Shown here piece by piece: positions 48,814 through 62,394 of a stretch of DNA of 64,000 nt (its first letter is position 1; each line of letters starts with the position of its first letter). The stretch lies in the NCBI GenBank assembly GCA_963793305.1, contig CAWBZV010000014.1:174932-238931 (forward strand), written 5' to 3'. The DNA comes from an uncultured Gemmatimonadales bacterium (GTDB taxonomy: Bacteria > Gemmatimonadota > Gemmatimonadetes > Gemmatimonadales > Gemmatimonadaceae). Both the position numbers and the translations under genes were made by a program. The notes beneath the pieces are model-generated. The model made no database searches, was not told the origin of the DNA, and worked only from the letters and a program-made list of their open reading frames with translations.

Positions 48814-49066
48814 ACGACCTCCTCCTGTTGGGGCAATCCTCGACTCGTTCCCGCAATACTCACCCCGAGTGGTGGCAGAGGCAATAAAGATGTCCCAAGA
48901 GAGCGGGTTTTCGGGCAGGGCGCGGATCGCCCAAGTGTCGTGCGCAGCACTACTTGGATGGGCGACCGAGGGCAGATTCGATTCGCAGCCATGCGGAGCT
49001 CGGCCAGCTGTCGGCCTGCGCAGTGCATCGACGCAAACCGACGTGGACGGCAATGTATTGTTCGAG

Positions 49067-49876: not shown

Positions 49877-50135
49877 ATGAGCAAAGTGGCGAAGAATCTA
49901 TCGCTCGAGCCAGAATGCGGTGAAACGAGGAGAGCGGTATGGTCGGTTGCACGGGACGAATCTGTCCCGTCTCGTCTCGGACTTCTTGCGCGCGTTGCCT
50001 CTCGAGCCGCCTGACGAACAGGCGTTATCGCCAGTCGTCCGGCGTCTTCGCGGTGTCGCCGCGGGCGGAACGGTCGACGAGACGCACTATCATGAGCACC
50101 TCTATCGGAAGTATGGAGGCCGGTCTCGCAAGTGA
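49877..50135 (+). CDS. RHH-type antitoxin (DUF6364-like; frameshift near 49915)
   Basis: MSKVAKNLSLE..., NLSRLVSDFL, LSPVVRRLRG, YHEHLYRKY; overlaps the toxin start. Confidence 0.75.
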
Positions 50136-50581
50136 CGGTGTCTGCGCCGCGGCGGCCAACCCTGCTAGTGGATACCAACATCGTTCTCAACGTCGTCCTG
50201 GAGCGCGCGCTGTGGGTCGCCGACGCCACGGCACTATTCGACGTGGTGGCGCGCGGCCAAACACCAGCGTTCATTGCTGGTCACACGGTGACTACAGTGC
50301 ACTACATCGTCGAACGGGAACGTGATCGTCGCACCGCGACCACTGCGATCGGCGATCTCTTGACGCTCTTTCCTGTCGTCCCGCTCGACACTGCCGATTT
50401 TCAGCGTGCGCTTGCCTTACGCCTCCGTGACTATGAGGACGCCGTTCAGGCCGTAGCTTGTCTGCGCATAGGCGCCGATTTTCTTGTCACACGGAACCCG
50501 AAGGATTTTCGGGGTTCGCCAGTAACGCCACGCGCGCCGGGCGAGGTACTGGCACTGATATCGAGTACTGATGCCGGCTAA
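50132..50581 (+). CDS. PIN domain toxin
   Basis: LVDTNIV, DYEDAVQ, LVTRNPKDF. Confidence 0.9.
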   Translation: MTVSAPRRPTLLVDTNIVLNVVLERALWVADATALFDVVARGQTPAFIAGHTVTTVHYIVERERDRRTATTAIGDLLTLFPVVPLDTADFQRALALRLRDYEDAVQAVACLRIGADFLVTRNPKDFRGSPVTPRAPGEVLALISSTDAG

Positions 50582-50657
50582 TGTGCCCAAGAATGTCCCC
50601 GATGGCGGGTTGTCGGGCAGGGCGCGAATCGTCTAACTTTGTTCCGCAGTACGAGTT

Positions 50658-50697
50658 GGATGGGTGGCCGAGTGGTTGAAGGCACCGGTCTCGAAAA
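50658..50697 (+). tRNA. 5' half of tRNA-Ser(CGA), truncated at the anticodon loop (non-functional fragment)
   Basis: GGATGGG-TG-GCCGAGTGGTTGAAGGC-A-CCGGT-CTCGAAA; no variable arm, T-arm or 3' acceptor strand follows. Confidence 0.88.
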
Positions 50698-50956: not shown

Positions 50957-51182
50957 ATGGCGAAGACCGGACGGCCGCGGCGCGCGGCCAGTCGCCAGCG
51001 GAAGCAGATCGTGATCGATGTGGCGCTACTCAAGAGGGCCATGGCGGTCACTGGAGGGAATCAGTCGACGACCGTGAATGAGGCGCTGGCACGCATGACG
51101 GAGAACGCAGCCATCATCGAGGGGTTCGAGCAGAATGCGCGGTGCCTTCCCCGATCATCCAGACCACACGGCGACACGCTAG
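50957..51182 (+). CDS. VapB-like antitoxin (frameshift near 51133)
   Basis: RKQIVIDVALLKRAMAVTG..STTVNEAL; corrected end QMRGAFPDHPDHTATR*. Confidence 0.75.
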
Positions 51183-51192
51183 CCTGCGGTCG

Positions 51193-51639
51193 ATGCCACG
51201 ATATGTGCTGGACACTCAGCATTTCATTGACGTTTTGCGGGATCGTCCGGCCGCGGCACAGGTATTGGAGTTCTTGCGTACGTTCGTAGCTGCCGTCGAT
51301 TTTCACTCGATCGTCGGGGCCGAGCTCCTCTTTGGCGCTCATGGACGAAACGAGGCAGCGGCGATACGGCGGCGATTCATTGATCGATTCCAGCCCCATC
51401 GCGTAATCGTGCCCGACGCGTCTGACATCCTCGCGTCTGGCGACGTGATCCGCAGGATTGCGGAGAAGGTGGGACCCCACCCGGAACTCGCTCAACGCAA
51501 CTTCTGGAATGACGTGCTGATCGCGGTTTCGTGTCGCCGCCGCGGTGTCCATCTGTTGTCGATCGATCCCGATCATGCACGGATTGCGCCGTTTGTGGGG
51601 CATTCGTTCAGCGCCGACTTTCCAACCATCGAGCGTTAG
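51193..51639 (+). CDS. VapC-like PIN toxin
   Basis: YVLDT, AELLFGA, NDVLIAVS, SIDPDH. Confidence 0.85.
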   Translation: MPRYVLDTQHFIDVLRDRPAAAQVLEFLRTFVAAVDFHSIVGAELLFGAHGRNEAAAIRRRFIDRFQPHRVIVPDASDILASGDVIRRIAEKVGPHPELAQRNFWNDVLIAVSCRRRGVHLLSIDPDHARIAPFVGHSFSADFPTIER

Positions 51640-51805: not shown

Positions 51806-52091
51806 CGAGAATGAGAAGGATTTCGAGCGCCTTAGGCGCGTCGTGCCGTTCGATTTCGTGCGGCCTTGACCTACCCCGCATCGGAGGTCTCTCCCCTCCG
51901 ACAACCAACCAATGTCCGACTCACGACCGCGAGCGAGGTCCTCGGCGTCGCCCTGACGAACCGCGCGGGGTCGGCGTCCTGGACAGAGAGCTCTCCGCGC
52001 ATGTTGCGCTGCGGTCTCCCGACGATTAAGGTAGCACTCCCTTTGAATTGCTCGACGAAAGTGATGCGGCGGGTGCAGGTCTGGAGGCGTG

Positions 52092-55000
52092 ATGAGTCCC
52101 CGGCTGCGCAGGTCCGCGATAACATCGTGTGCGGCACTGGCTATCGTCGCCTGCACGTCACACAACGGGACCGGGCCACAAGGCCCTCCCGGTAGCCAAG
52201 CATTCGCCCCGTCTCACGATACGTCGCTCGCTGGGACAATTCAGTTCAAGTCGGTGACGATTCCCGCCGGCGTCACCGTCACGGCCACTGGGCCGCTGAC
52301 GCTCGAAGTATCGGGGGCCACTCAGATTGCCGGAACACTTGCGGCACCGTGTTACCCGCTCTCGTTGCTGGACAGCGGGACCGTGACCGTGAGTGGCACC
52401 GTCAACAACGCGTGCAACGGCCAGACGCCTGCGACATCGCCCGACCTCCGGATCTTCGGGCAAGGCGGCCTGGATTTCAACAACGCGACGTTCAAGAGTG
52501 CCGGCGCGCAGTTGTACACGAACGACACCACGCTAACCGATGTGTCGTTCGCCACCGCGGCGGCACCCAGCTCGGCGTCGCACGTCGACCAAACGACCAG
52601 CACCGGGTCGTGCAATGTAAGCGGCACGTCGTTCGTTGCCGATCAGGGAGCCAACGGGGCCGACGGCTCCCCGGTCGGCAAACCGGGTCAAGACGGCGAT
52701 CCATGGGCGCTCCAGTGTACGGGCACGCTCAATGTGAGCGCCGTGTCGGTGACGGGACAGAACGGCGGCAACGGCGGCAAGGGCACGTCGACCTCCGCGA
52801 CCACGGCCCAGGGTGGCCAGGGAGGAAAGGGCGGCACGCTCCGCGTGCGCGCCGCGGGCGACATCGTGTTCGCGGGCCAGAACACCCTTGCGGGTGGCAA
52901 CGGTGGCAATGGAGGCGCGGCGATCGGAGCCCCGACCGCACCGAGCGCGAACGCGAACGCCATCGGCGGAGCTGGTGGCGACGGCAGCAGTGGGTCGGGC
53001 AACAATGGTCCGGTCTCCGTGCAGGCCAAGGGCAATATCACGATCACCGGCCCGCTCGCCATTATCGTCGGCCACGGCGGAGCGGGAGGTGCGGCAACGG
53101 CTACAGCGACCAAGGGCGCCGATGGCAACCCAGGGCAGCCCGGGGGCGCAGCGAACGCGACCGGCGGCAAGGGAGGCAATACGCTGCCGTACACGTTGTC
53201 AGGGACCAATGCGTCCGGTCTCGCAAGCGTCATGGTCACCGGCGGTAATGCGGGCGTGGGTGGCAATGCGATCGCGAAAGGTGGGAACGGCGGGAACGGC
53301 ACCCAGGCCGCGGCGCCTGGCGGAAAGGGTGGCGACATGAAAGGCACAGGCGGCGCCGGTGGCAACGCGCAGGTCAAGGATCAGAATGGGGCCTTGATCG
53401 GCACGGGCGGGAATGCGGGCACTTTGGAGATCGATCTGGGGAATGGCGGCAACGGGTTCAGTGACTGCGTCGCCAATATGCCGACAGCGGCAGGCGGCAA
53501 TGGCGGCGCGGGGGGGAACGCCTCAGGTACGTTCGGAACGGCCGGTACGGGGCGGGCGGCCGGCGCGCCGGGCACGACCGCGGTCAACACGGCTGGCAAC
53601 GGAGGCACGGGCGGCAACGGCGTCGGTCCGGGTCAGGGAGGTCCGCCGGGATCGAACACGGCGGCCGGACCAGCGGGAGGCAATGGCCCTTCATTCGCGC
53701 GCGGCGCGAATGGCGCGACCTGTCCGGCGGTCGGACCACGGACGTTCACGGTCACGAACGGGGACGCGACGAACCAGCCGTGGCTCCTGGTGGCCGTTTC
53801 GATCAACGGCGCACCGTTCATCCAAATCACGCCGAGCGGACTGACGTGGCTGATGGATCTCAACGCGACGACCGACGGCACCGAGGTCGCTCTTGCCATT
53901 GTGCGCGCAACGTCCACCGGAACCACGATTGATGTGATCGACCGGCCCGCCTCATTCTTCCTGCAAAATGCCGCGACGGTCTACACGACCGGCATCGGCG
54001 GTCAAGCGACGGGCTCAGTGACGGCTACCGCGACGGCGACCACCGGTCAGACAGAGAAGATCGCGACGGGCCTGTCGAGCGCCATCGCGACGCCGCCGAG
54101 CACCGCGGTGACGTTGAGTCGCGCGTTACTGGGCAACTTCAGTGTCCGTTCGTGGATCAACTCGTCGTCTGGGCTTCCGCTCTCGTGGTCGTTCGATGTC
54201 GCGAACGTGACGAACGGCGAAGACATCTCTTCGTTGCTGCAGCCGCAACACTCGTATGCGTCCGTGACCGCAAACTCGTCGCTGGGGAGTCAGCGCTATT
54301 TCGTGGGCTACTCGGAGATCGGATCGGCGCTGGACGATGAATGCGATGATGGTGCGAGCGAGCCGTTTGGTCCGAAAGCAGGGTACGTGTTCTTCGAGCC
54401 AGGCAGCGGACCGAGCGGGTACAACCTGCCGGTCGCGGCCCTCGGCGACCTCCCCACGGGCGCGCTGCAGAACGTCAACATCAGGCTAGCGCCGACGCAA
54501 TCGTCATTCTCCCGGACTCGGTTGTTCTTCCGCATGCCGACCGCCCTCAACCTCACTCAGGCGCCATCGTACGCGATGCCGACCATCACCTCGGTGGCGG
54601 GCCCGATCCAAGCCTTCAACATCCAGGGACAGATTCAGTCGCCGTACCAGTATGCAGATTTCACGTACCGGACGACGTCCGGCGGCAAGAACTTTACGCT
54701 CCGCATGCATCTGGGCTACGAGCTGAGCGCGCTCAACGCAACGACGCCGACGGATGCGATGTTCAATCAGTACGGGCCTCCGACCAGCACGCCCGGGATC
54801 GGCACGTTCAAGGGATATAGCGCCGATCCGTACGTCATACCTACTGATGGTGCGCAGGTGTTCGAGGCGGGCTTCAGCTTCTACCGTGGCTCGTACGCGG
54901 CGCCGAGCTACACGCTCGCGGTCACGCCGAACCCCGTCAACGTCCCACAGGGCGGCACCGCACCGGTGCAACTCCAGATCACTCGCACGAACTTCACCGG

Positions 55001-55976
55001 CCAGGTGTACGTCGGGTCCTTCAGCGCCGGTGGCGTGTCCGTCGCGGGCACGGTGATCCCGGCGGGCCAAACCACCGGATCGGCGGTCATCGCCGCCGGA
55101 CCGTCGGCTGCCGCGGGTCAGCATACGGTGTCGATCGCCGCGGACGCGGTCGCGGGTGGTGTCGAATTGCCGTTCACAGACAATATCGCTGCCAACGTCA
55201 CGGCCGCGGCGCCGCAACTCGCGATCACACTCACGCCGTCGCCCGACACGATCCGGCTCGGCACCGGTGCCCAGTTCCAGAATTTCCGGATCGGCGTCCA
55301 CGTGACGCGGACGAACTTCACGGGACCCGTCAACGTCGACTTGGCCGGGTTCCCGGCAAATGCAGCCGGCGGAGCGTCGCTGTCGTACATGTCGCCGACT
55401 TCGTTCACGATCCCGGACGGGCAAAGCGATTCCGCGTTCGTGCTGTATGCCGGAGCTAATGCTCTACCGGCAACCCTTGTCTCGCCGGTCACCGCGATTG
55501 CCGCCCCGAATGGCACCACGCTTGAGGCCACGGCCTCCAGCACCGTCACGCTCCTCCCGTGGCCCGGCGCAACATTTAACGTCGCGGTCACGTCGAAGTT
55601 CGCCGCCGACAGCGTCTTGGACAAACTGTTCCAGATGGAGCAAGTCAAGCAGATCACGCTCAGTCCGCACCCCGACAGCATCGGGTACGGCATTTATGTC
55701 GTGTCGAGTCCGCAATCGCCGCCGTGGGCCACGTTGTCGGGAGGGATCGGCTTCAGCGATTCGTTGAGCTTCGGATTCAATGGGAGCATCCTGACCACAT
55801 TCCAAGGACAGCCGGTCAGTTACGAGCTGTCGGGCAACACCAATAGGGGCGTGATGAGCTTCGTGTTGGGGATCGTCTATCCATACCCGGGCAACGGGTC
55901 CGGCATCACGTACCTCGTGAATGGCACGCAATCCTCCGCCGGCGCACGAGTCAGCGCGCGGCCGCGCGCCCGATAA
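52092..55976 (+). CDS. Large surface lipoprotein with PGRS-like Gly-rich region and Ig-like repeats
   Basis: GGAGG RBS, LAIVAC lipobox, GGNGG/GGAGG repeats ~aa 190-545, two TRTNFTG repeats. Confidence 0.8.
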   Translation: MSPRLRRSAITSCAALAIVACTSHNGTGPQGPPGSQAFAPSHDTSLAGTIQFKSVTIPAGVTVTATGPLTLEVSGATQIAGTLAAPCYPLSLLDSGTVTVSGTVNNACNGQTPATSPDLRIFGQGGLDFNNATFKSAGAQLYTNDTTLTDVSFATAAAPSSASHVDQTTSTGSCNVSGTSFVADQGANGADGSPVGKPGQDGDPWALQCTGTLNVSAVSVTGQNGGNGGKGTSTSATTAQGGQGGKGGTLRVRAAGDIVFAGQNTLAGGNGGNGGAAIGAPTAPSANANAIGGAGGDGSSGSGNNGPVSVQAKGNITITGPLAIIVGHGGAGGAATATATKGADGNPGQPGGAANATGGKGGNTLPYTLSGTNASGLASVMVTGGNAGVGGNAIAKGGNGGNGTQAAAPGGKGGDMKGTGGAGGNAQVKDQNGALIGTGGNAGTLEIDLGNGGNGFSDCVANMPTAAGGNGGAGGNASGTFGTAGTGRAAGAPGTTAVNTAGNGGTGGNGVGPGQGGPPGSNTAAGPAGGNGPSFARGANGATCPAVGPRTFTVTNGDATNQPWLLVAVSINGAPFIQITPSGLTWLMDLNATTDGTEVALAIVRATSTGTTIDVIDRPASFFLQNAATVYTTGIGGQATGSVTATATATTGQTEKIATGLSSAIATPPSTAVTLSRALLGNFSVRSWINSSSGLPLSWSFDVANVTNGEDISSLLQPQHSYASVTANSSLGSQRYFVGYSEIGSALDDECDDGASEPFGPKAGYVFFEPGSGPSGYNLPVAALGDLPTGALQNVNIRLAPTQSSFSRTRLFFRMPTALNLTQAPSYAMPTITSVAGPIQAFNIQGQIQSPYQYADFTYRTTSGGKNFTLRMHLGYELSALNATTPTDAMFNQYGPPTSTPGIGTFKGYSADPYVIPTDGAQVFEAGFSFYRGSYAAPSYTLAVTPNPVNVPQGGTAPVQLQITRTNFTGQVYVGSFSAGGVSVAGTVIPAGQTTGSAVIAAGPSAAAGQHTVSIAADAVAGGVELPFTDNIAANVTAAAPQLAITLTPSPDTIRLGTGAQFQNFRIGVHVTRTNFTGPVNVDLAGFPANAAGGASLSYMSPTSFTIPDGQSDSAFVLYAGANALPATLVSPVTAIAAPNGTTLEATASSTVTLLPWPGATFNVAVTSKFAADSVLDKLFQMEQVKQITLSPHPDSIGYGIYVVSSPQSPPWATLSGGIGFSDSLSFGFNGSILTTFQGQPVSYELSGNTNRGVMSFVLGIVYPYPGNGSGITYLVNGTQSSAGARVSARPRAR

Positions 55977-56100
55977 CCTGGCGCACATCATCACGGATGC
56001 CATGGTTTCGCGCAGATCTACTGCTCGCGCGCCTGGCTGCGCAGTAGCCGGGTTGTGGGGCAGGCCACGGATCGTCTAAGTTTTGTGCACAGTACTACTT

Positions 56101-56140
56101 GGATGGGTGGCCGAGTGGTTGAAGGCACCGGTCTCGAAAA
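56101..56140 (+). tRNA. 5' half of tRNA-Ser(CGA), second copy (non-functional fragment)
   Basis: Identical to 50658-50697. Confidence 0.88.
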
Positions 56141-56279: not shown

Positions 56280-57098
56280 CTAGGCTGCAGTCGGTGACTG
56301 CGGGGGGTTCTCGCCGCCGGCGGGCAGTTGGCTCAAGTCGATTCCCCAGGCGTATGCAGGATCGATTTGGACTCCCAACGCCTCGTGCACCATGGCGCAG
56401 AAAAAGAGCCCGGTCCTCGCCAAGTACTCGACGGTGTTCTCGCACTCGGGAACAGGCGGAGGTACGGGCTCACCGCCGTGCACTATGGCCTGACGCAGCT
56501 TATCAAGCTGCTCAAGCCGCTCCCTATCATACTGGTAATTGCCAACCGGCGCGAAACCCTTTGGGGGTTGGCAAATCTCGAACAGCCTGTCGGCCCGGGC
56601 GAGCAGGGGCTCACGGTCCAGACCCCGCACGTAAGTATCAAGTCGACCCGCGAGCAACGATTGCGCATCCTGCGCGCGAAGCTCTTCGAACGTCACTGTT
56701 CGTCTTTCTACGTATTTCTCCCAGCGGGTGGGGGCGAGTAAAAGAGTAACGCGACACAAATCGGATAGCGCTGCGTCAACAGCGGCATGCATGAATTCCA
56801 ATGATGCACCGTCCACTACCCGCCAAAATCCGTTGACTCGTCGCGCTGTGAATCCCTGGGCAACCTCTTTGATGCCACCGAGGAACGCGACCGCGGCCTT
56901 GGGGTCGGAGAAGATTTTAGAGTACGCGCCGTTCTCGATATCCTTCGCGAGGCGATAGTTCTCTGCCGACAACTTTAACATGGCAGCCGGGAAGCCCTGC
57001 GTTATGAGTTGACGGAAGCTCGAGATTTCCCCCTGTCGTTCAATGAGATTCGTGAACACGCGGCTATAGAGGCGCACCGCCTCGTCTTGCGTCGCCAT
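56280..57098 (-). CDS. Putative HEPN domain protein
   Basis: Helical protein with LRQAIVHGG (Rx4H) near the C-terminus. Confidence 0.6.
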   Translation of the reverse strand: MATQDEAVRLYSRVFTNLIERQGEISSFRQLITQGFPAAMLKLSAENYRLAKDIENGAYSKIFSDPKAAVAFLGGIKEVAQGFTARRVNGFWRVVDGASLEFMHAAVDAALSDLCRVTLLLAPTRWEKYVERRTVTFEELRAQDAQSLLAGRLDTYVRGLDREPLLARADRLFEICQPPKGFAPVGNYQYDRERLEQLDKLRQAIVHGGEPVPPPVPECENTVEYLARTGLFFCAMVHEALGVQIDPAYAWGIDLSQLPAGGENPPQSPTAA

Positions 57099-57451
57099 TT
57101 GTCGGCAAGTCCTCATGGCATCGGTTTGCGTGAGCGCTCGGGCCCGAATCTATGAACCTAGTGGTATGGATTGGGACAGGCTCGCTCGCCGGTTACCTGC
57201 TTCGAGGGCCGATCACCGATGGACATTTCGAACGAGATTGCGGTATCGCAACCGTGGATGTTCCGACCTCGGTCTCTATCTGCGGCCGAGGGAGTACACG
57301 CGGCTCACTCGGTAGGGCGACATCTCGCAGAAATAGCGTTACTATCAACCCTGTTAGCTACGAACCTCGTGGCGCGATAAAACGGTCTCTGTCCGCCCAC
57401 ACGATGGTTCGCACAGTTCGGGTATCCAGGCTTCACGTTGAAGGAACCGAG

Positions 57452-57634
57452 ATGGCGACTGCTCCAAGATCGTTCGTTGTCATGGACACTAACGTCTACA
57501 GACGACTTGGTCACGGCAAGACCGTCGAACAGGCGAGGCGTAAAGGCGAAGGTCTTGCGACTCACAACGCACGACTCGGTATTCAAGCCCTGGCGCACCC
57601 GTCGGCAAGCTTGAGGCGGATCGTCCGGAACTAG
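57452..57634 (+). pseudogene. Truncated PIN-like ORF
   Basis: FVVMDTNVYR start motif but only 60 codons; abuts the next gene. Confidence 0.45.
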
Positions 57635-58548
57635 TGCCGGACGTCAGAGGTGGGTCACACTTCGTTCTGGCATCGGACTACAGCGGCCAACATGCTGGCG
57701 CGACTCATAAGACATATTCATTCTTACTGGCGAGCGTGGATCAGTCGCAGAGCTGGGAGGTCGCGCGCGCAAGATTTCGGGAGCGTCTCGGAGATCAGAG
57801 ACGAATCAGCTATAAGGATCTTCGCGATCAACGTAAGTGGAGAGCCCTTCCAGAATTCTTGGCCGCTGCGGATCAGATTGTCGGTGTACTGGCGACTTTT
57901 ATAGTCGATCGGCGTTTCGATACGCTGTTACCACCTACGATCAACGATCAGATCGGCTCTTTGTTGCCTCAAACGTTGCCGGTGCCCAGTTCAGCGATCC
58001 TCGAAGACATGGTGAGGACAGCTCATTTTATCGTGTTGTTGATAGCCGGGCTCCTTCGCGACGATCAGGGCGTTCAATGGATTACGGACGAAGATGCGAT
58101 CGTGCAGAATGAGATACGGCAGACACAGATGCGGTCTGTTTTGAGCACGGTCAGTAAAGCGCATCACAAGGAAGTGCCGTACTTGAAGTTTTTCAACATG
58201 GGCCTGACCAGCAGCCCCGACCCAAGTCGTATTATTGAGGACTTCGCTAGCATCCCCGATCTCGCGGCTGGTGCGGTTGCTAGCTACTTCGAGGAACGAC
58301 CAGAGTTGTTGTCGCAGGCAGAGCGTGGAAGGCTCGACCCGCCACCCAAGAACATGCAGGCGAAGACCTATCAAATACTCGACTGGATCGGGTCGAAGAA
58401 CGTGCCGTTGAAGCGTTGGACATTCTTGCTCACGCCCACATCACCGCCGGCTCATAGTGTGTGGGCATCGCTTCTGCGGGTGGTCGGCCCTGGCCACACG
58501 CCGAGGGGACTGCCTGTCACGTTCGCGCGAACGCGCCGCTCGAGTTGA
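57634..58548 (+). CDS. DUF3800-like (RNase H fold) hypothetical protein
   Basis: LASDYSG, ISYKDL, WITDED, IPDLAAGA acidic pattern. Confidence 0.55.
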   Translation: MPDVRGGSHFVLASDYSGQHAGATHKTYSFLLASVDQSQSWEVARARFRERLGDQRRISYKDLRDQRKWRALPEFLAAADQIVGVLATFIVDRRFDTLLPPTINDQIGSLLPQTLPVPSSAILEDMVRTAHFIVLLIAGLLRDDQGVQWITDEDAIVQNEIRQTQMRSVLSTVSKAHHKEVPYLKFFNMGLTSSPDPSRIIEDFASIPDLAAGAVASYFEERPELLSQAERGRLDPPPKNMQAKTYQILDWIGSKNVPLKRWTFLLTPTSPPAHSVWASLLRVVGPGHTPRGLPVTFARTRRSS

Positions 58549-58600: not shown

Positions 58601-60022
58601 TCAATACCTCGTGTCGATGTACACTGCGTGACGGCCGGGACATGGGTACCCACTCTTGTCACGATGAGGCCGCAGGGTGGAACTTCTGGTCTTGTGGTAA
58701 AAGCGCTTGCCGCAATAGCTGCACTCGTACACGTAGGTCGGACCGCTGCCAGTCCGGTGTTGACGTGACGACGGGCGTGGTCGCATGCGGTTCACTGTAC
58801 CGCGACCGGATTGACGTCCAGCTACCGGCTTGAGATGCACTGGTCCTTCTGGGGTCAGCTCCACCTCATATCGCGGCTCGAACGTCTGATTCGTAATGCG
58901 CGCGCCGGTGATGCGATCAACGCGGTAACTCCGGTGTTCACCTCGGGTGACGCTGAATGTGTGGAGTAGGACGTTGCCATCGGCAGTTCGGCGGAGTGAG
59001 TATGGTTCGATTCGTCGCGTGGAATTCTGATAGTCCAGATCCACACAGAGACGGTTTGAACCCGCGAACCTGATGATTTCGAGAAACGACTGCGACTGCA
59101 TTGGCAAGTGCAGGCGTAGTTGTCGACTGCGAAGCACGGTCTCGCCTGATCCCACCACATACGCAGCAGGAACCACTGGTGCCGCGCCACCCTCTAACCA
59201 TTCAAAGAACGCGGGCAAGACGTTCCAGAACGACTCAAGCGGCGGCAAAGCTGGTAGTTGATGCGCGAGCATGGTCGTCCAGCCGCCATCTAAGTCGCTT
59301 CTATGCGGGAGGAGATCTACAAACTTGGGCACGGAGATCCCCTTGAAGGCGCACTTCTGCTTCAGTACGTCGAGTAAGACTGAAGCGGAAGGCCGCGCAT
59401 GTTCGTTGCGAAACAGGTTGATCACGTCATACAAGTCGCGCGGCCGTGTTCGTTCGGCTAGGGCTCGTATTTTTTCGCCGAACGCCTCTTCGTACGCATA
59501 CGCAAGGATTTGAATTCCATCCGTGGGCGCATCGCTATAAGGATGGAAGATCGGAACCCTTGCAGGTGGCAGGACAACTCTCTCGTCGGCTGTGAGATCC
59601 AGCTTAATGCGGGGCAGTCCTCCAGAGACAGGAGACACAGGCCCACGGTAGCTGAGCTTCGCCTGACACGACCGCTGGCCACGCGGGTTGTCGTAAATGT
59701 CAAAATCTTGCTTGTCGACGGGCAGCTCGAACCCCGCTTGCTCGTAGACCCATTCACTGATTTCGCCGAACACCCGCTTCAAGAAGGTCTGATCGATATG
59801 AGACGCATCGGTCAGCGTGAAGTCCAGATCCTCAGAAAAGCGGTAGGTCTCGAAGAAGCATTTCTTGAGACACGTCCCTCCTTTGAAGATCCAGGTCTCC
59901 GCCAAAGCAGAATGCGCATTGATGCCAGCGAGCACCCATCCCAGTACAACGTCTTTTTCGATAACGTGCGGGTTGAGGCCCGTCGCCGTCGCAGCGTCGA
60001 TAATCTCGCGGCGATCAATCAC
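58601..60022 (-). CDS. AbiEii-type nucleotidyltransferase toxin fused to WYL and C-terminal Zn finger
   Basis: IEKD, FKGGTCLKK, RFSEDLDF, EKIRAL, RPRDLYD; RRIEPYSL..RSYRVDRI; CSYC..H..C. Confidence 0.88.
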   Translation of the reverse strand: MIDRREIIDAATATGLNPHVIEKDVVLGWVLAGINAHSALAETWIFKGGTCLKKCFFETYRFSEDLDFTLTDASHIDQTFLKRVFGEISEWVYEQAGFELPVDKQDFDIYDNPRGQRSCQAKLSYRGPVSPVSGGLPRIKLDLTADERVVLPPARVPIFHPYSDAPTDGIQILAYAYEEAFGEKIRALAERTRPRDLYDVINLFRNEHARPSASVLLDVLKQKCAFKGISVPKFVDLLPHRSDLDGGWTTMLAHQLPALPPLESFWNVLPAFFEWLEGGAAPVVPAAYVVGSGETVLRSRQLRLHLPMQSQSFLEIIRFAGSNRLCVDLDYQNSTRRIEPYSLRRTADGNVLLHTFSVTRGEHRSYRVDRITGARITNQTFEPRYEVELTPEGPVHLKPVAGRQSGRGTVNRMRPRPSSRQHRTGSGPTYVYECSYCGKRFYHKTRSSTLRPHRDKSGYPCPGRHAVYIDTRY

Positions 60023-60822
60023 GATGCTCTCGTTGCGCCCACGTATTGGGAATCCAGAGGCGCCACCGTGTGACTAGTCGTTGCGCTGGAAGGGCCGGAT
60101 CGAGCGCCGTGGTGCCCTTGGTGATGCGTTTCTCGCACGATGCCACAAGCGATTCCGTTCCGGGCTCTCGTTCGGCGAGAAACCCGAGTCGCTTGAAAAC
60201 CGCGCCATTGCGTAAGTGCGTGGCGTACTCGATCAGTCGCGTATCGTTTCGATCGGGCCGTCGGAGGTACGCGTGAAAGCAATCGGAGACGAATTGAATC
60301 CCACTACCAAGCGCCGGATCGTCCAGCATGTCGATGATGGTGCGGTGAACGTCCGAGACCATGACTTTCGTCTGCCGCCGCCAAACGGTCTTCGTACCGA
60401 AGACCTTGTCCTTTTGGATATGCGTCAGCGTGAATTCGGCCCCGTGGCGAAGCTGTCGCTTTTGGCGAACGATTTGAGTAGTGAGCACAACGATATCCCT
60501 GAACAGCTGCTCGGTGAGGTCCCAGTGGTGTGCTGCGGTGCGGCCACCGATATAGCCAGGTGCAAAGAGACTCGGGACCAGAATCCAAGGATCGTCTAGT
60601 ACATGCTCGCTCGCCAAAGACTCGAGCTGCACCGGCACGTAGGTGCCGCTGCCGACTCTTCGCAGCCATCCTTGGCTGGCCCACCGCGAGAGGAGTTTCG
60701 CGGCATCGACGCGTGAGACACCGAGCGTGCTCGCCGTGTGCTCGATGTCCACGAACGTCGCCCGCAGAGCGGACAACGTCCGCCAATCGGGCTCGGCCGC
60801 GAGGGAGTTCGGGTGTGGGCAT
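60015..60822 (-). CDS. AbiEi-type (type IV TA) antitoxin (frameshift near 60765)
   Basis: wHTH LSRWASQGWLRRVGSGTY, YIGGRTAAHHWDLTEQ, SDVHRTIIDML, KRLGFL; overlaps the toxin start. Confidence 0.85.
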
Positions 60823-61393
60823 CCGCTCTTTCATATACCGTTATTCGCGAAAAATGGGAAATACAGCACATGCAATGTACTACAGTCCAATGGGGATGGA
60901 CTACACAGTGCGCGAAAATCTCATAAATCGCGAAATATTGCAGTTGTGTAGTAGTGGCGCCGACCAACCTCTCGGCGCACGCTGGAAGTGCCATTGCGGT
61001 TAGGCCCAGGTGGGCCTAACATTGCCTCCAGCGCCTGGCCAATTGGGGCCGGCGAAAAATAGGGGGAGAGTATGACCCGTTTCCGACGCGGGTGAGGATA
61101 CCGCGTTCGGGCACCTCAGCAGCGCGCGCAGATCGCTGCTGAGCATCCGGACGCTGACGCTGGAAGGCGTCGTCTTCTCGTCGCGTGACGTGCTCTCGTT
61201 GTTGGATCGTGCCCTCGCGCGCCTTTGGGCGGCGGAGGCCCGCATCGCGGCCGAGCGCATGACGATCTCCAGTGGTTCCGATTGGAACCGGGAGAGCGCA
61301 TGACAGTGATCACAGCCCTCGACGCGCGTTCGTTTGCTCGAAGCGGCTACACTCTCCCCGGCCGCGACGCGCGGCGCGTGGTGGTGGAGAGAG

Positions 61394-61615
61394 ATGCCGG
61401 ACAAGATGGACCCCGAGATGGCCGCGCGCATCAAGTTGCTTCAGCGCGCAATAGAGTTGAGTGGTATGAGCGCTCGACAGTTCGCGACTCAGGTGCTGAT
61501 TCGCGACGAGAGAACCGTGCGCAAATGGCTGCACGGGGACAGCGAAGTGCCCGACGTCGTGCGCGATTTTCTGATCGGTTACATCCACGACACAGAGAAG
61601 GGGAAGAACACGTAG
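61394..61615 (+). CDS. Small XRE/Cro-like HTH protein
   Basis: SGMSARQFA..RDERTVRKWLHG. Confidence 0.65.
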   Translation: MPDKMDPEMAARIKLLQRAIELSGMSARQFATQVLIRDERTVRKWLHGDSEVPDVVRDFLIGYIHDTEKGKNT

Positions 61616-61652
61616 CTCGCGAGCGCGGTGAACTGCGGGCCGGGAGGCAGGC

Positions 61653-61946
61653 ATGAGCGCGCGTCATGTTAGGCTCGCGGCCTTCGCGCAGGTGGTCCGT
61701 TCATATCGAAAAGCCACCGGCTTCTCGCAAGAACGTTTCGCCTACGAGGCGGACCTTGACCGCGCTGGATATGGCCGACTGGAGCGCGGCAAAGGCAACC
61801 TCACTTACCTAAACCTTCGCCAGCTGCTCATCGGCCTCGGTGTCACGTGGCGCGATTTCGGCGCCTCGTTGCACGAGATTGATGCTCTGCCGACGCTCAA
61901 TCGATCCAACTCGCCTTACTGGACTCGGAGGAGCGACGATGTCTGA
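61653..61946 (+). CDS. XRE family HTH regulator
   Basis: GFSQERFAYEADLDRAGYGRLERGKGNLT. Confidence 0.85.
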   Translation: MSARHVRLAAFAQVVRSYRKATGFSQERFAYEADLDRAGYGRLERGKGNLTYLNLRQLLIGLGVTWRDFGASLHEIDALPTLNRSNSPYWTRRSDDV

Positions 61947-62394
61947 GACCGTCAAACCGATCGTCGCGACCAATGAATCCGCGTTGATCGATCAACTTCG
62001 CGAAGCAGTTGATCGCCAGAGCAACGCGATTAGAAATCTCGGCCGGGCTCTTGTTGACCGTCTCGTCGCCGACGAGCAGTTCGCGACGCTCGCCGTCAAA
62101 GAGGCACTTCAAATTCTGCCGTGCGCCTTGACTCGTCGCTTGGAACGGTTTGCTCGGGGCGATCACTGGCCCGGCCTGCGCGCCAAAGTTGCTGCTGACC
62201 GTCGCCTAGTACAGCTCCTGTCGAAATCGCGCGTCTTCCGAGAAGCCGCCGTAAGCGATGCGATCATCGCGCAACGGATGGCCGAGTGTAGCTCCGCGAG
62301 AGCTGCCGCGAATGAAGCCGGCAAAAGGTTTCGATTGTCGAAGCGCGGGGCTCAGGTGATCGTGTGGTGCGCCAGTTGCCCAGAGCGCCATTGA
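61939..62394 (+). CDS. Hypothetical protein
   Basis: GGAG RBS; overlaps the previous stop; C-terminal CASC. Confidence 0.5.
   Translation: MSETVKPIVATNESALIDQLREAVDRQSNAIRNLGRALVDRLVADEQFATLAVKEALQILPCALTRRLERFARGDHWPGLRAKVAADRRLVQLLSKSRVFREAAVSDAIIAQRMAECSSARAAANEAGKRFRLSKRGAQVIVWCASCPERH

Follow-up and report, generated by a model that had tools for sequence, protein, structure and literature searches.

The 64 000-nt window analysed here, a stretch of one contig from an uncultured Gemmatimonadales bacterium, carries an AbiE toxin-antitoxin pair whose toxin continues past its enzyme into a WYL domain, a basic linker and a zinc finger. The question that this locus raises is what the extra domains do. 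An earlier note, made from the sequence alone, saw in them a sensor-effector fusion in which phage nucleic acid may gate the toxin directly. The same note spoke of a type IV system, a label that is likely outdated, AbiE having since been reclassified as type VII (10.64898/2026.01.19.700257).

The toxin gene occupies 58601..60022 on the minus strand and opens with GTG; it is one continuous frame of 473 aa with no internal stop, just as the note had described it, and is hit by the PADLOC model PDLC02317 (E 6e-203), which covers the enzyme plus the WYL domain. The DUF1814 nucleotidyltransferase domain (aa 1-278, 59189..60022, minus strand) is recognized by its fold, which is that of MenT3, and by its conserved motifs K47-G-G-T50, R61-x-S63-x-D65-x-D67, K184 and R195-D196-xx-D199. 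The catalytic motif residues are found in all 196 aligned relatives, apart from R61, found in 195. Two residues ahead of the DxD motif lies S63 (codon 59834..59836, minus strand), a serine in 196/196 sequences and the predicted autophosphorylation acceptor, which we equate by motif spacing rather than by residue-level superposition with S78 of MenT3 (PMC11375011) and T65 of AbiEii. The WYL (Sm-like) domain follows at aa 305-386 (58865..59110, minus strand), supported by Pfam, by the structural model and by a dN/dS of 0.10, and has no WCX domain after it. Next come a linker at aa 391-427 (58742..58852, minus strand) that is predicted to be disordered (pLDDT <50) and holds seven K/R and no D/E between aa 400 and 427, and a zinc finger of predicted metal-binding capacity at aa 428-473 (58604..58741, minus strand; pLDDT ~90). 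The finger motif is C434-x2-C437-x15-H453-x7-C461, of CCHC type, with all four ligands conserved across the aligned relatives; the note had seen the motif correctly and miscounted its middle spacing as x17.

Pfam assigns aa 30-268 to AbiEii (E 2e-37) and aa 314-375 to WYL (25 bits against a cut-off of 21.8); on this protein its zinc ribbon match was weak, and there was neither a WCX match nor an N-terminal wHTH. The AlphaFold2 model (mean pLDDT 77, pTM 0.58) agrees with this layout of AbiEii region, WYL-like domain and basic linker, which the note had proposed. The model has three folded units (enzyme, WYL and zinc finger), with the linker between enzyme and WYL disordered and the tail in no fixed docking. 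The enzyme unit superposes on MenT3 (Z 20.2, rmsd 3.4, 258 aa); MenT3 and MenT4 are the best structural matches overall (Z 19-21, ~250-260 aa), yet they share only 11-19% identity with the window toxin and have no WYL domain. The C-terminal region does model as WYL, the point on which the earlier reading depended: it matches PafBC (Z 11.5), ssDNA-bound CapW (Z 10.7, rmsd 1.6, 78 aa), BrxR and DriD, and also resembles Sm-fold RNA binders such as Hfq (Z ~6). A sequence search of solved structures with the WYL domain alone gave no match.

The antitoxin gene abiEi (60015..60822, minus strand; PADLOC PDLC02271, E 4e-119) encodes a wHTH and a C-terminal domain. It lies upstream of the toxin gene, with its ATG at 60822 and an 8-nt overlap with the toxin start, so the toxin is indeed directly downstream of AbiEi. 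In the window assembly, however, abiEi is frameshifted near codon 23 by one surplus base at 60754. Contigs from two of four read runs cover that position, and both are without one base there (the runs belong to one study, and one of them may be the source of the assembly). Because both covering runs lack the base, we read the break as most likely an assembly error and the gene as intact; on the same contigs we reject a genuine antitoxin pseudogene. The loop T106-E107-Q108 of the product, which corresponds by motif to D85-E86-I87 of AbiEi, is kept in 77/78, 78/78 and 78/78 sequences, respectively.

These features invite comparison with the AbiE system of Streptococcus agalactiae, in which AbiEi is reported to induce autophosphorylation of AbiEii T65 (10.64898/2026.01.19.700257). 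There too a DUF1814 toxin lies downstream of a wHTH antitoxin, and both the Ser/Thr acceptor and the antitoxin loop are kept in the window pair. The differences are that the window toxin is ~190 residues longer, through its WYL domain, linker and zinc finger, and that the antitoxin has ~268 aa. According to the same study, phosphorylation does not extend to MenT4, a relative whose antitoxin is of the same kind, and the trigger that activates AbiE/MenT toxins on infection is elusive.

The fusion itself has been catalogued before. Makarova et al. 2014 (PMC4012209) list a WYL domain fused to an AbiGII-like nucleotidyltransferase, with a table entry 'DUF1814+WYL+zf-C2H2' of five members of 333-486 aa, two of them labelled with a zinc finger, and propose that ligand binding by WYL regulates AbiG-type systems. 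The domain order of their 'AbiGII-like-nucleotidyltransferase+WYL+C2H2' is that of the window toxin, whereas the finger is labelled C2H2 there and is CCHC here; the entries on this fusion in PMC4012209 carry neither an experiment nor a remark on the presence of an antitoxin. That paper was alone in our literature search on 'DUF1814' with 'WYL', and the search, whose scope ended short of subscription journals and bioRxiv supplements, found no experimental study of a DUF1814-WYL fusion. The architecture is not new, and the window locus is a further member of the type catalogued in 2014.

What the WYL domain might bind can be approached through its structural relatives. DriD, PafBC, CapW and BrxR share the fold (Z 9-11.5, rmsd 1.6-3.2), and most of their ssDNA-contact positions have putative equivalents in the window toxin, but they are HTH-WYL-WCX transcription factors, whereas the WYL domain here comes after an enzyme and is accompanied by neither WCX nor HTH. 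The contacts to ssDNA were taken from PMC9186387 for DriD and from PMC11662680 for CapW, in both of which the WCX domain contributes to the pocket (PMC9122601 is a further source on WYL domains). Mapping by motifs and by the end of the alignment (model residue 384 = DriD 224) gives the putative equivalents Y331 for Y168, R336 for R178, R364 for R204, Y366 for W206 and R367 for R207, kept in 196, 191, 187, 193 and 184 of the 196 sequences. DriD Y192 and K202 are not kept in the clade of the window toxin, the Y192 position being I/V/L, and the loop of S172/R176 is short. Several residues outside the DriD contact set are invariant (E315, R318, F319, Y341, S342 and L343), and R344 is found in 192/196. 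On this comparison it is quite probable that the WYL domain binds ssDNA or RNA, and its mode of binding probably differs from that of the regulators.

Relatives of the window toxin, which we call clade A, are close and widely scattered: the 119 best matches listed have 63-76% identity over 94-100% of the length, and 426 of 477 pattern matches in GTDB genomes encode a relative. The best 80 loci come from at least seven phyla, and abiEi lies upstream of the toxin gene at every one of them. Fusion and sensing idea alike had been published in 2014 (PMC4012209). Members occur on plasmids too; a phage collection yielded none of the family. Within the 196 aligned sequences identity is 68% for WYL vs 71% for the enzyme, and over 25 non-overlapping clade-A pairs the dN/dS is 0.08 for the enzyme, 0.10 for WYL and 0.12 for the zinc finger. 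At 16 of the 39 clade-A loci scanned (132/137 ORFs) there are PADLOC matches no further than 2.5 kb away; the count has no background control, and several of the matches are generic helicases. Enzyme-WYL covariation by mutual information gave noise. An Atlas search for other effectors joined to the same tail returned WYL-only clusters, and a search for stand-alone WYL-ZnF genes gave 490 shorter matches, many of them on short contigs.

The tail is not always present in clade A. Of 150 cluster representatives, the enzyme domain is whole in 71: 14 of these carry both WYL and finger, 27 carry WYL without the finger, 29 lack both and one has the finger only (genomic context is missing here, and some may be fragments). 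In a quick tree of 94 rows, which omits seven long-tailed rows with neither domain and the finger-only row, the tail forms interleave, with at least ten forced changes for the form with neither. From these sequences the tail appears to have been lost repeatedly in clade A and to be dispensable there. The finger is present in 59/75 long ORFs of clade A vs 76/77 of clade B (described below), both sets favouring full-length matches; of the 16 finger-less clade-A ORFs, two are frameshifts and seven come from one phylum. Seven loci of Thermodesulfobacteriota/Dadabacteria (L033, L035, L039, L041, L068, L071 and L079) are without the zinc finger and keep abiEi, and in most of them the arginine motif of the WYL domain has decayed.

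A plasmid search brought up a sister clade, clade B, as full-length matches of ~27% identity with no annotated antitoxin. It is a large family that accounts for 467 of 596 metagenome pattern matches (the best 80 kept) and includes Sinorhizobium mexicanum WP_180941829.1 and one provirus member; none was found among 401 genomes of one class, and 301 genomes of another phylum held two matches, both of clade A (one genome, G003, holds L036). Clade B has the same three domains as clade A, and profile matches show its WYL (E 2e-13) and its finger (E 2e-21) to be homologous to those of clade A. The enzyme tree and the WYL tree both set clade B apart across a branch with support 100. In 190 clade-B sequences there is little or no variation at K47, G48, G49, R61, D65, D67, K183, D195, D198 or the four zinc ligands, and position 63 is Ser in 189/190 and Thr in 1/190. 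The putative Y168, R178, Y192 and R204 (as K) positions of DriD are kept and R207 is not; the alignment ends did not support equating clade-B Y388 with DriD Y240. Over 22 clade-B pairs the dN/dS is 0.085 for WYL vs 0.064 for the enzyme.

In a further departure from the S. agalactiae system, clade B has no antitoxin beside the toxin. A profile search for AbiEi hit 0/83 clade-B loci (best E 0.59) vs 80/80 clade-A loci; of the 83, at least 1.2 kb of upstream DNA is available at 60 and as much on both sides at 41, and they fall into 61 groups at 90% identity, 43 of them with enough upstream DNA. AbiEi was absent from two whole clade-B plasmids (436 and 425 kb) and from a 50-kb provirus, both control plasmids being positive, and likewise from locus L172. 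Counting ORFs of at least 30 aa within 1.5 kb, we found no conserved partner gene either, the top neighbour family, an integrase, being common to 4/61 groups. One Streptomyces member has neither finger nor AbiEi. At 15 of the 43 clade-B loci scanned there are defence-type genes within 2.5 kb, again a count with no background control, and the neighbours include restriction, CBASS, Shedu, Argonaute and SIR2 genes. At L104 (2316-4734) the clade-B gene adjoins a Piwi-domain gene and a Shedu gene, and another nucleotidyltransferase gene, with a different annotation, is found near the clade-B gene at L083 (6733-7698) and at L172 (2529-3653). As far as the literature searched goes, this antitoxin-free clade is a previously undescribed variant.

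The structural model of a clade-B protein matches MenT4 (Z 20.9) and DriD (Z 10.2), with a pTM of 0.78 and an ordered linker. When enzyme and tail were modelled as two separate chains, the pair scored 0.57 vs 0.00 for the best control, with no interface given; in a benchmark of this score at ≤0.60, 18/157 solved and 2/215 mismatched pairs passed. At least 87% of contacts are shared between runs, and the partner pLDDT is at least 73. Docking of the clade-B WYL tail on the enzyme is thus weakly predicted.

The surroundings of the window pair bear on how it came to be there. An exact 40-nt copy of the 5' half of tRNA-Ser(CGA) lies at 56101..56140 (plus strand), 2.5 kb from the pair, and is likely an att scar at the border of the element in which the pair resides; a second exact 40-nt copy lies at 50658..50697 (plus strand), and a third, decayed copy near 48940-48970. 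Two such matches were reached in 0/100 shuffles. The scars span the 5' half plus ~40 nt upstream (50617-50697, 56060-56140 and the decayed 48940-48970); att scars usually copy the 3' half of a tRNA. The tRNA-Ser att array of the note consists of these copies, and there is no intact tRNA gene anywhere in the 64-kb window; Rfam gave no match over 48-64 kb. An intact tRNA-Ser is found near the end of contig C6, with a split tyrosine integrase just 5' of it (L081 11511-12873), and no overlap was found between the ends of that contig and of C14. We infer that scars, intact tRNA and integrase make up one tandem array of integrated elements. The DNA around the pair has 58% GC vs 65% for the genome, and 1/60 related genomes has a match; the pair likely sits on a mobile island.

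Other ORFs share this region. The att copy at 50658 is flanked by toxin-antitoxin-like pairs at 49920-50581 (plus strand; DUF6364 and PIN) and 50957-51639 (plus strand; weak VapB-like and PIN), and most of the space between the two att copies is filled by a glycine-rich, lipoprotein-like ORF of 1295 aa (52089-55976, plus strand) with no Pfam match. Beside the toxin lie low-GC ORFs of 278 aa (56280-57116, minus strand) and 304 aa (57634-58548, plus strand), without a convincing Pfam, PADLOC or NCBIfam match, which are possible defence cargo. Upstream of abiEi and on the opposite strand, 61334-62394 (plus strand) holds an unknown ORF and two small HTH genes, likely mobile-element regulators.

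The note had found the tRNA-Ser location notable, MenT-family toxins being said to favour tRNA-Ser. MenT3 does prefer tRNA-Ser (PMC11541572), but at 11-19% identity its preference is not transferable to the window toxin. Within 6 kb, 10/80 clade-A loci have a tRNA or tmRNA gene, with tRNA-Ser at L056 only, inside a five-tRNA cluster, and a tRNA lies near 4/83 clade-B loci; nearby tRNA fragments are of many kinds. With tRNA-Ser at 1/80 clade-A and 0/83 clade-B loci, a link between tRNA-Ser targeting and the insertion site is not supported, and the location of the window pair looks like coincidence.

Our proposal for the function of the pair starts from the gene order, domains, conserved residues, purifying selection and patchy spread found for the locus and its family. 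The toxin would, very probably, add nucleotides to tRNA 3' ends, and this tailing would block protein synthesis. AbiEi would hold the toxin off by phospho-control, inducing autophosphorylation of Ser63, a step that by analogy is fairly probable. Single-stranded nucleic acid bound by the WYL domain would then be a second, built-in input beside AbiEi, the ligand tipping the toxin to activity during infection or DNA damage. Clade B has an intact DUF1814 active site and no antitoxin, and it must therefore have another brake or low toxicity; of the possible brakes, a tail that is weakly predicted to dock on the enzyme is the simplest. There the WYL-zinc-finger tail, docked until a ligand releases it, would act as the sole brake, and the chances that nucleic acid gates the enzyme in this way seem evenly balanced. 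With no antitoxin gene next to the clade-B toxin, the fused domain is likely a built-in switch. For the window protein, gating by ligand binding is plausible on the comparative evidence, with a chance slightly short of even, which antitoxin-free clade B raises and does not prove. Against it stand the looser tail in the model of this protein, the missing WCX domain, the apparent dispensability of the tail in clade A, the S. agalactiae AbiE that gave no phage protection and the unphosphorylated MenT4. The full reading, in which the nucleotidyltransferase-WYL-zinc-finger protein is a self-contained sensor-effector immune toxin, clade B a single-gene defence, devoid of any antitoxin, whose tail keeps a tRNA-tailing enzyme shut off until single-stranded nucleic acid from phage or damage releases it, and the window lineage one that keeps both locks, is one that we hold tentatively, as possible rather than probable.

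A different view of the tail, somewhat unlikely in our judgement, is that WYL, basic linker and zinc finger form an arm that holds tRNA or another RNA as substrate and raises efficiency or selectivity, AbiEi being the sole control and nothing being sensed. The Sm-fold is common to RNA binders such as Hfq, the window toxin has neither WCX nor HTH as a signal relay, the tail seems repeatedly dispensable in clade A, and a WYL domain that binds ssDNA stimulates the Pif1 helicase (PMC6789036), all of which suit such an arm; it leaves unexplained how clade B can keep an intact active site and no antitoxin. The tail might instead sense something other than nucleic acid, such as a phage protein, a nucleotide messenger or redox/zinc status. 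A WYL factor that senses c-di-GMP has been reported, several invariant WYL residues fall outside the DriD contact set, and clades A and B keep different subsets of that set; but the basic and aromatic positions that contact ssDNA are largely kept and the nearest folds include ssDNA-bound WYL proteins, and we consider this very unlikely.

It is also conceivable, if quite unlikely, that the pair has no part in phage defence and serves as an addiction or maintenance module of the mobile element, clade B being a nucleotidyltransferase too mild to be toxic and in no need of an antitoxin. The GC contrast of the island, the match in 1/60 related genomes and the plasmid members fit, as does the finding that AbiE of S. 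agalactiae gave E. coli no protection against 32 phages (10.64898/2026.01.19.700257). Yet a gene without an antitoxin cannot addict, and the clade-B loci lie amid defence genes of the kinds listed above. Clade B may, finally, be controlled by an antitoxin supplied in trans from the chromosome, by an unrelated type of antitoxin or by constitutive self-phosphorylation, in place of the docked tail of the reading that we prefer.

Taken alone, the window locus is of low novelty, its architecture having been catalogued in 2014. The antitoxin-free members would probably escape detection by rules, such as those of the PADLOC type, that require both AbiE genes. Nearly all WYL domains studied so far act, to our knowledge, through transcription factors. 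Here a WYL domain is wired to an enzyme predicted to block translation, in lineages with and without an antitoxin, which makes the questions of what triggers the toxin and what the WYL domain does directly testable. If the window lineage does keep both locks, a ligand acting on the WYL domain would be the trigger that accounts of AbiE activation have lacked.
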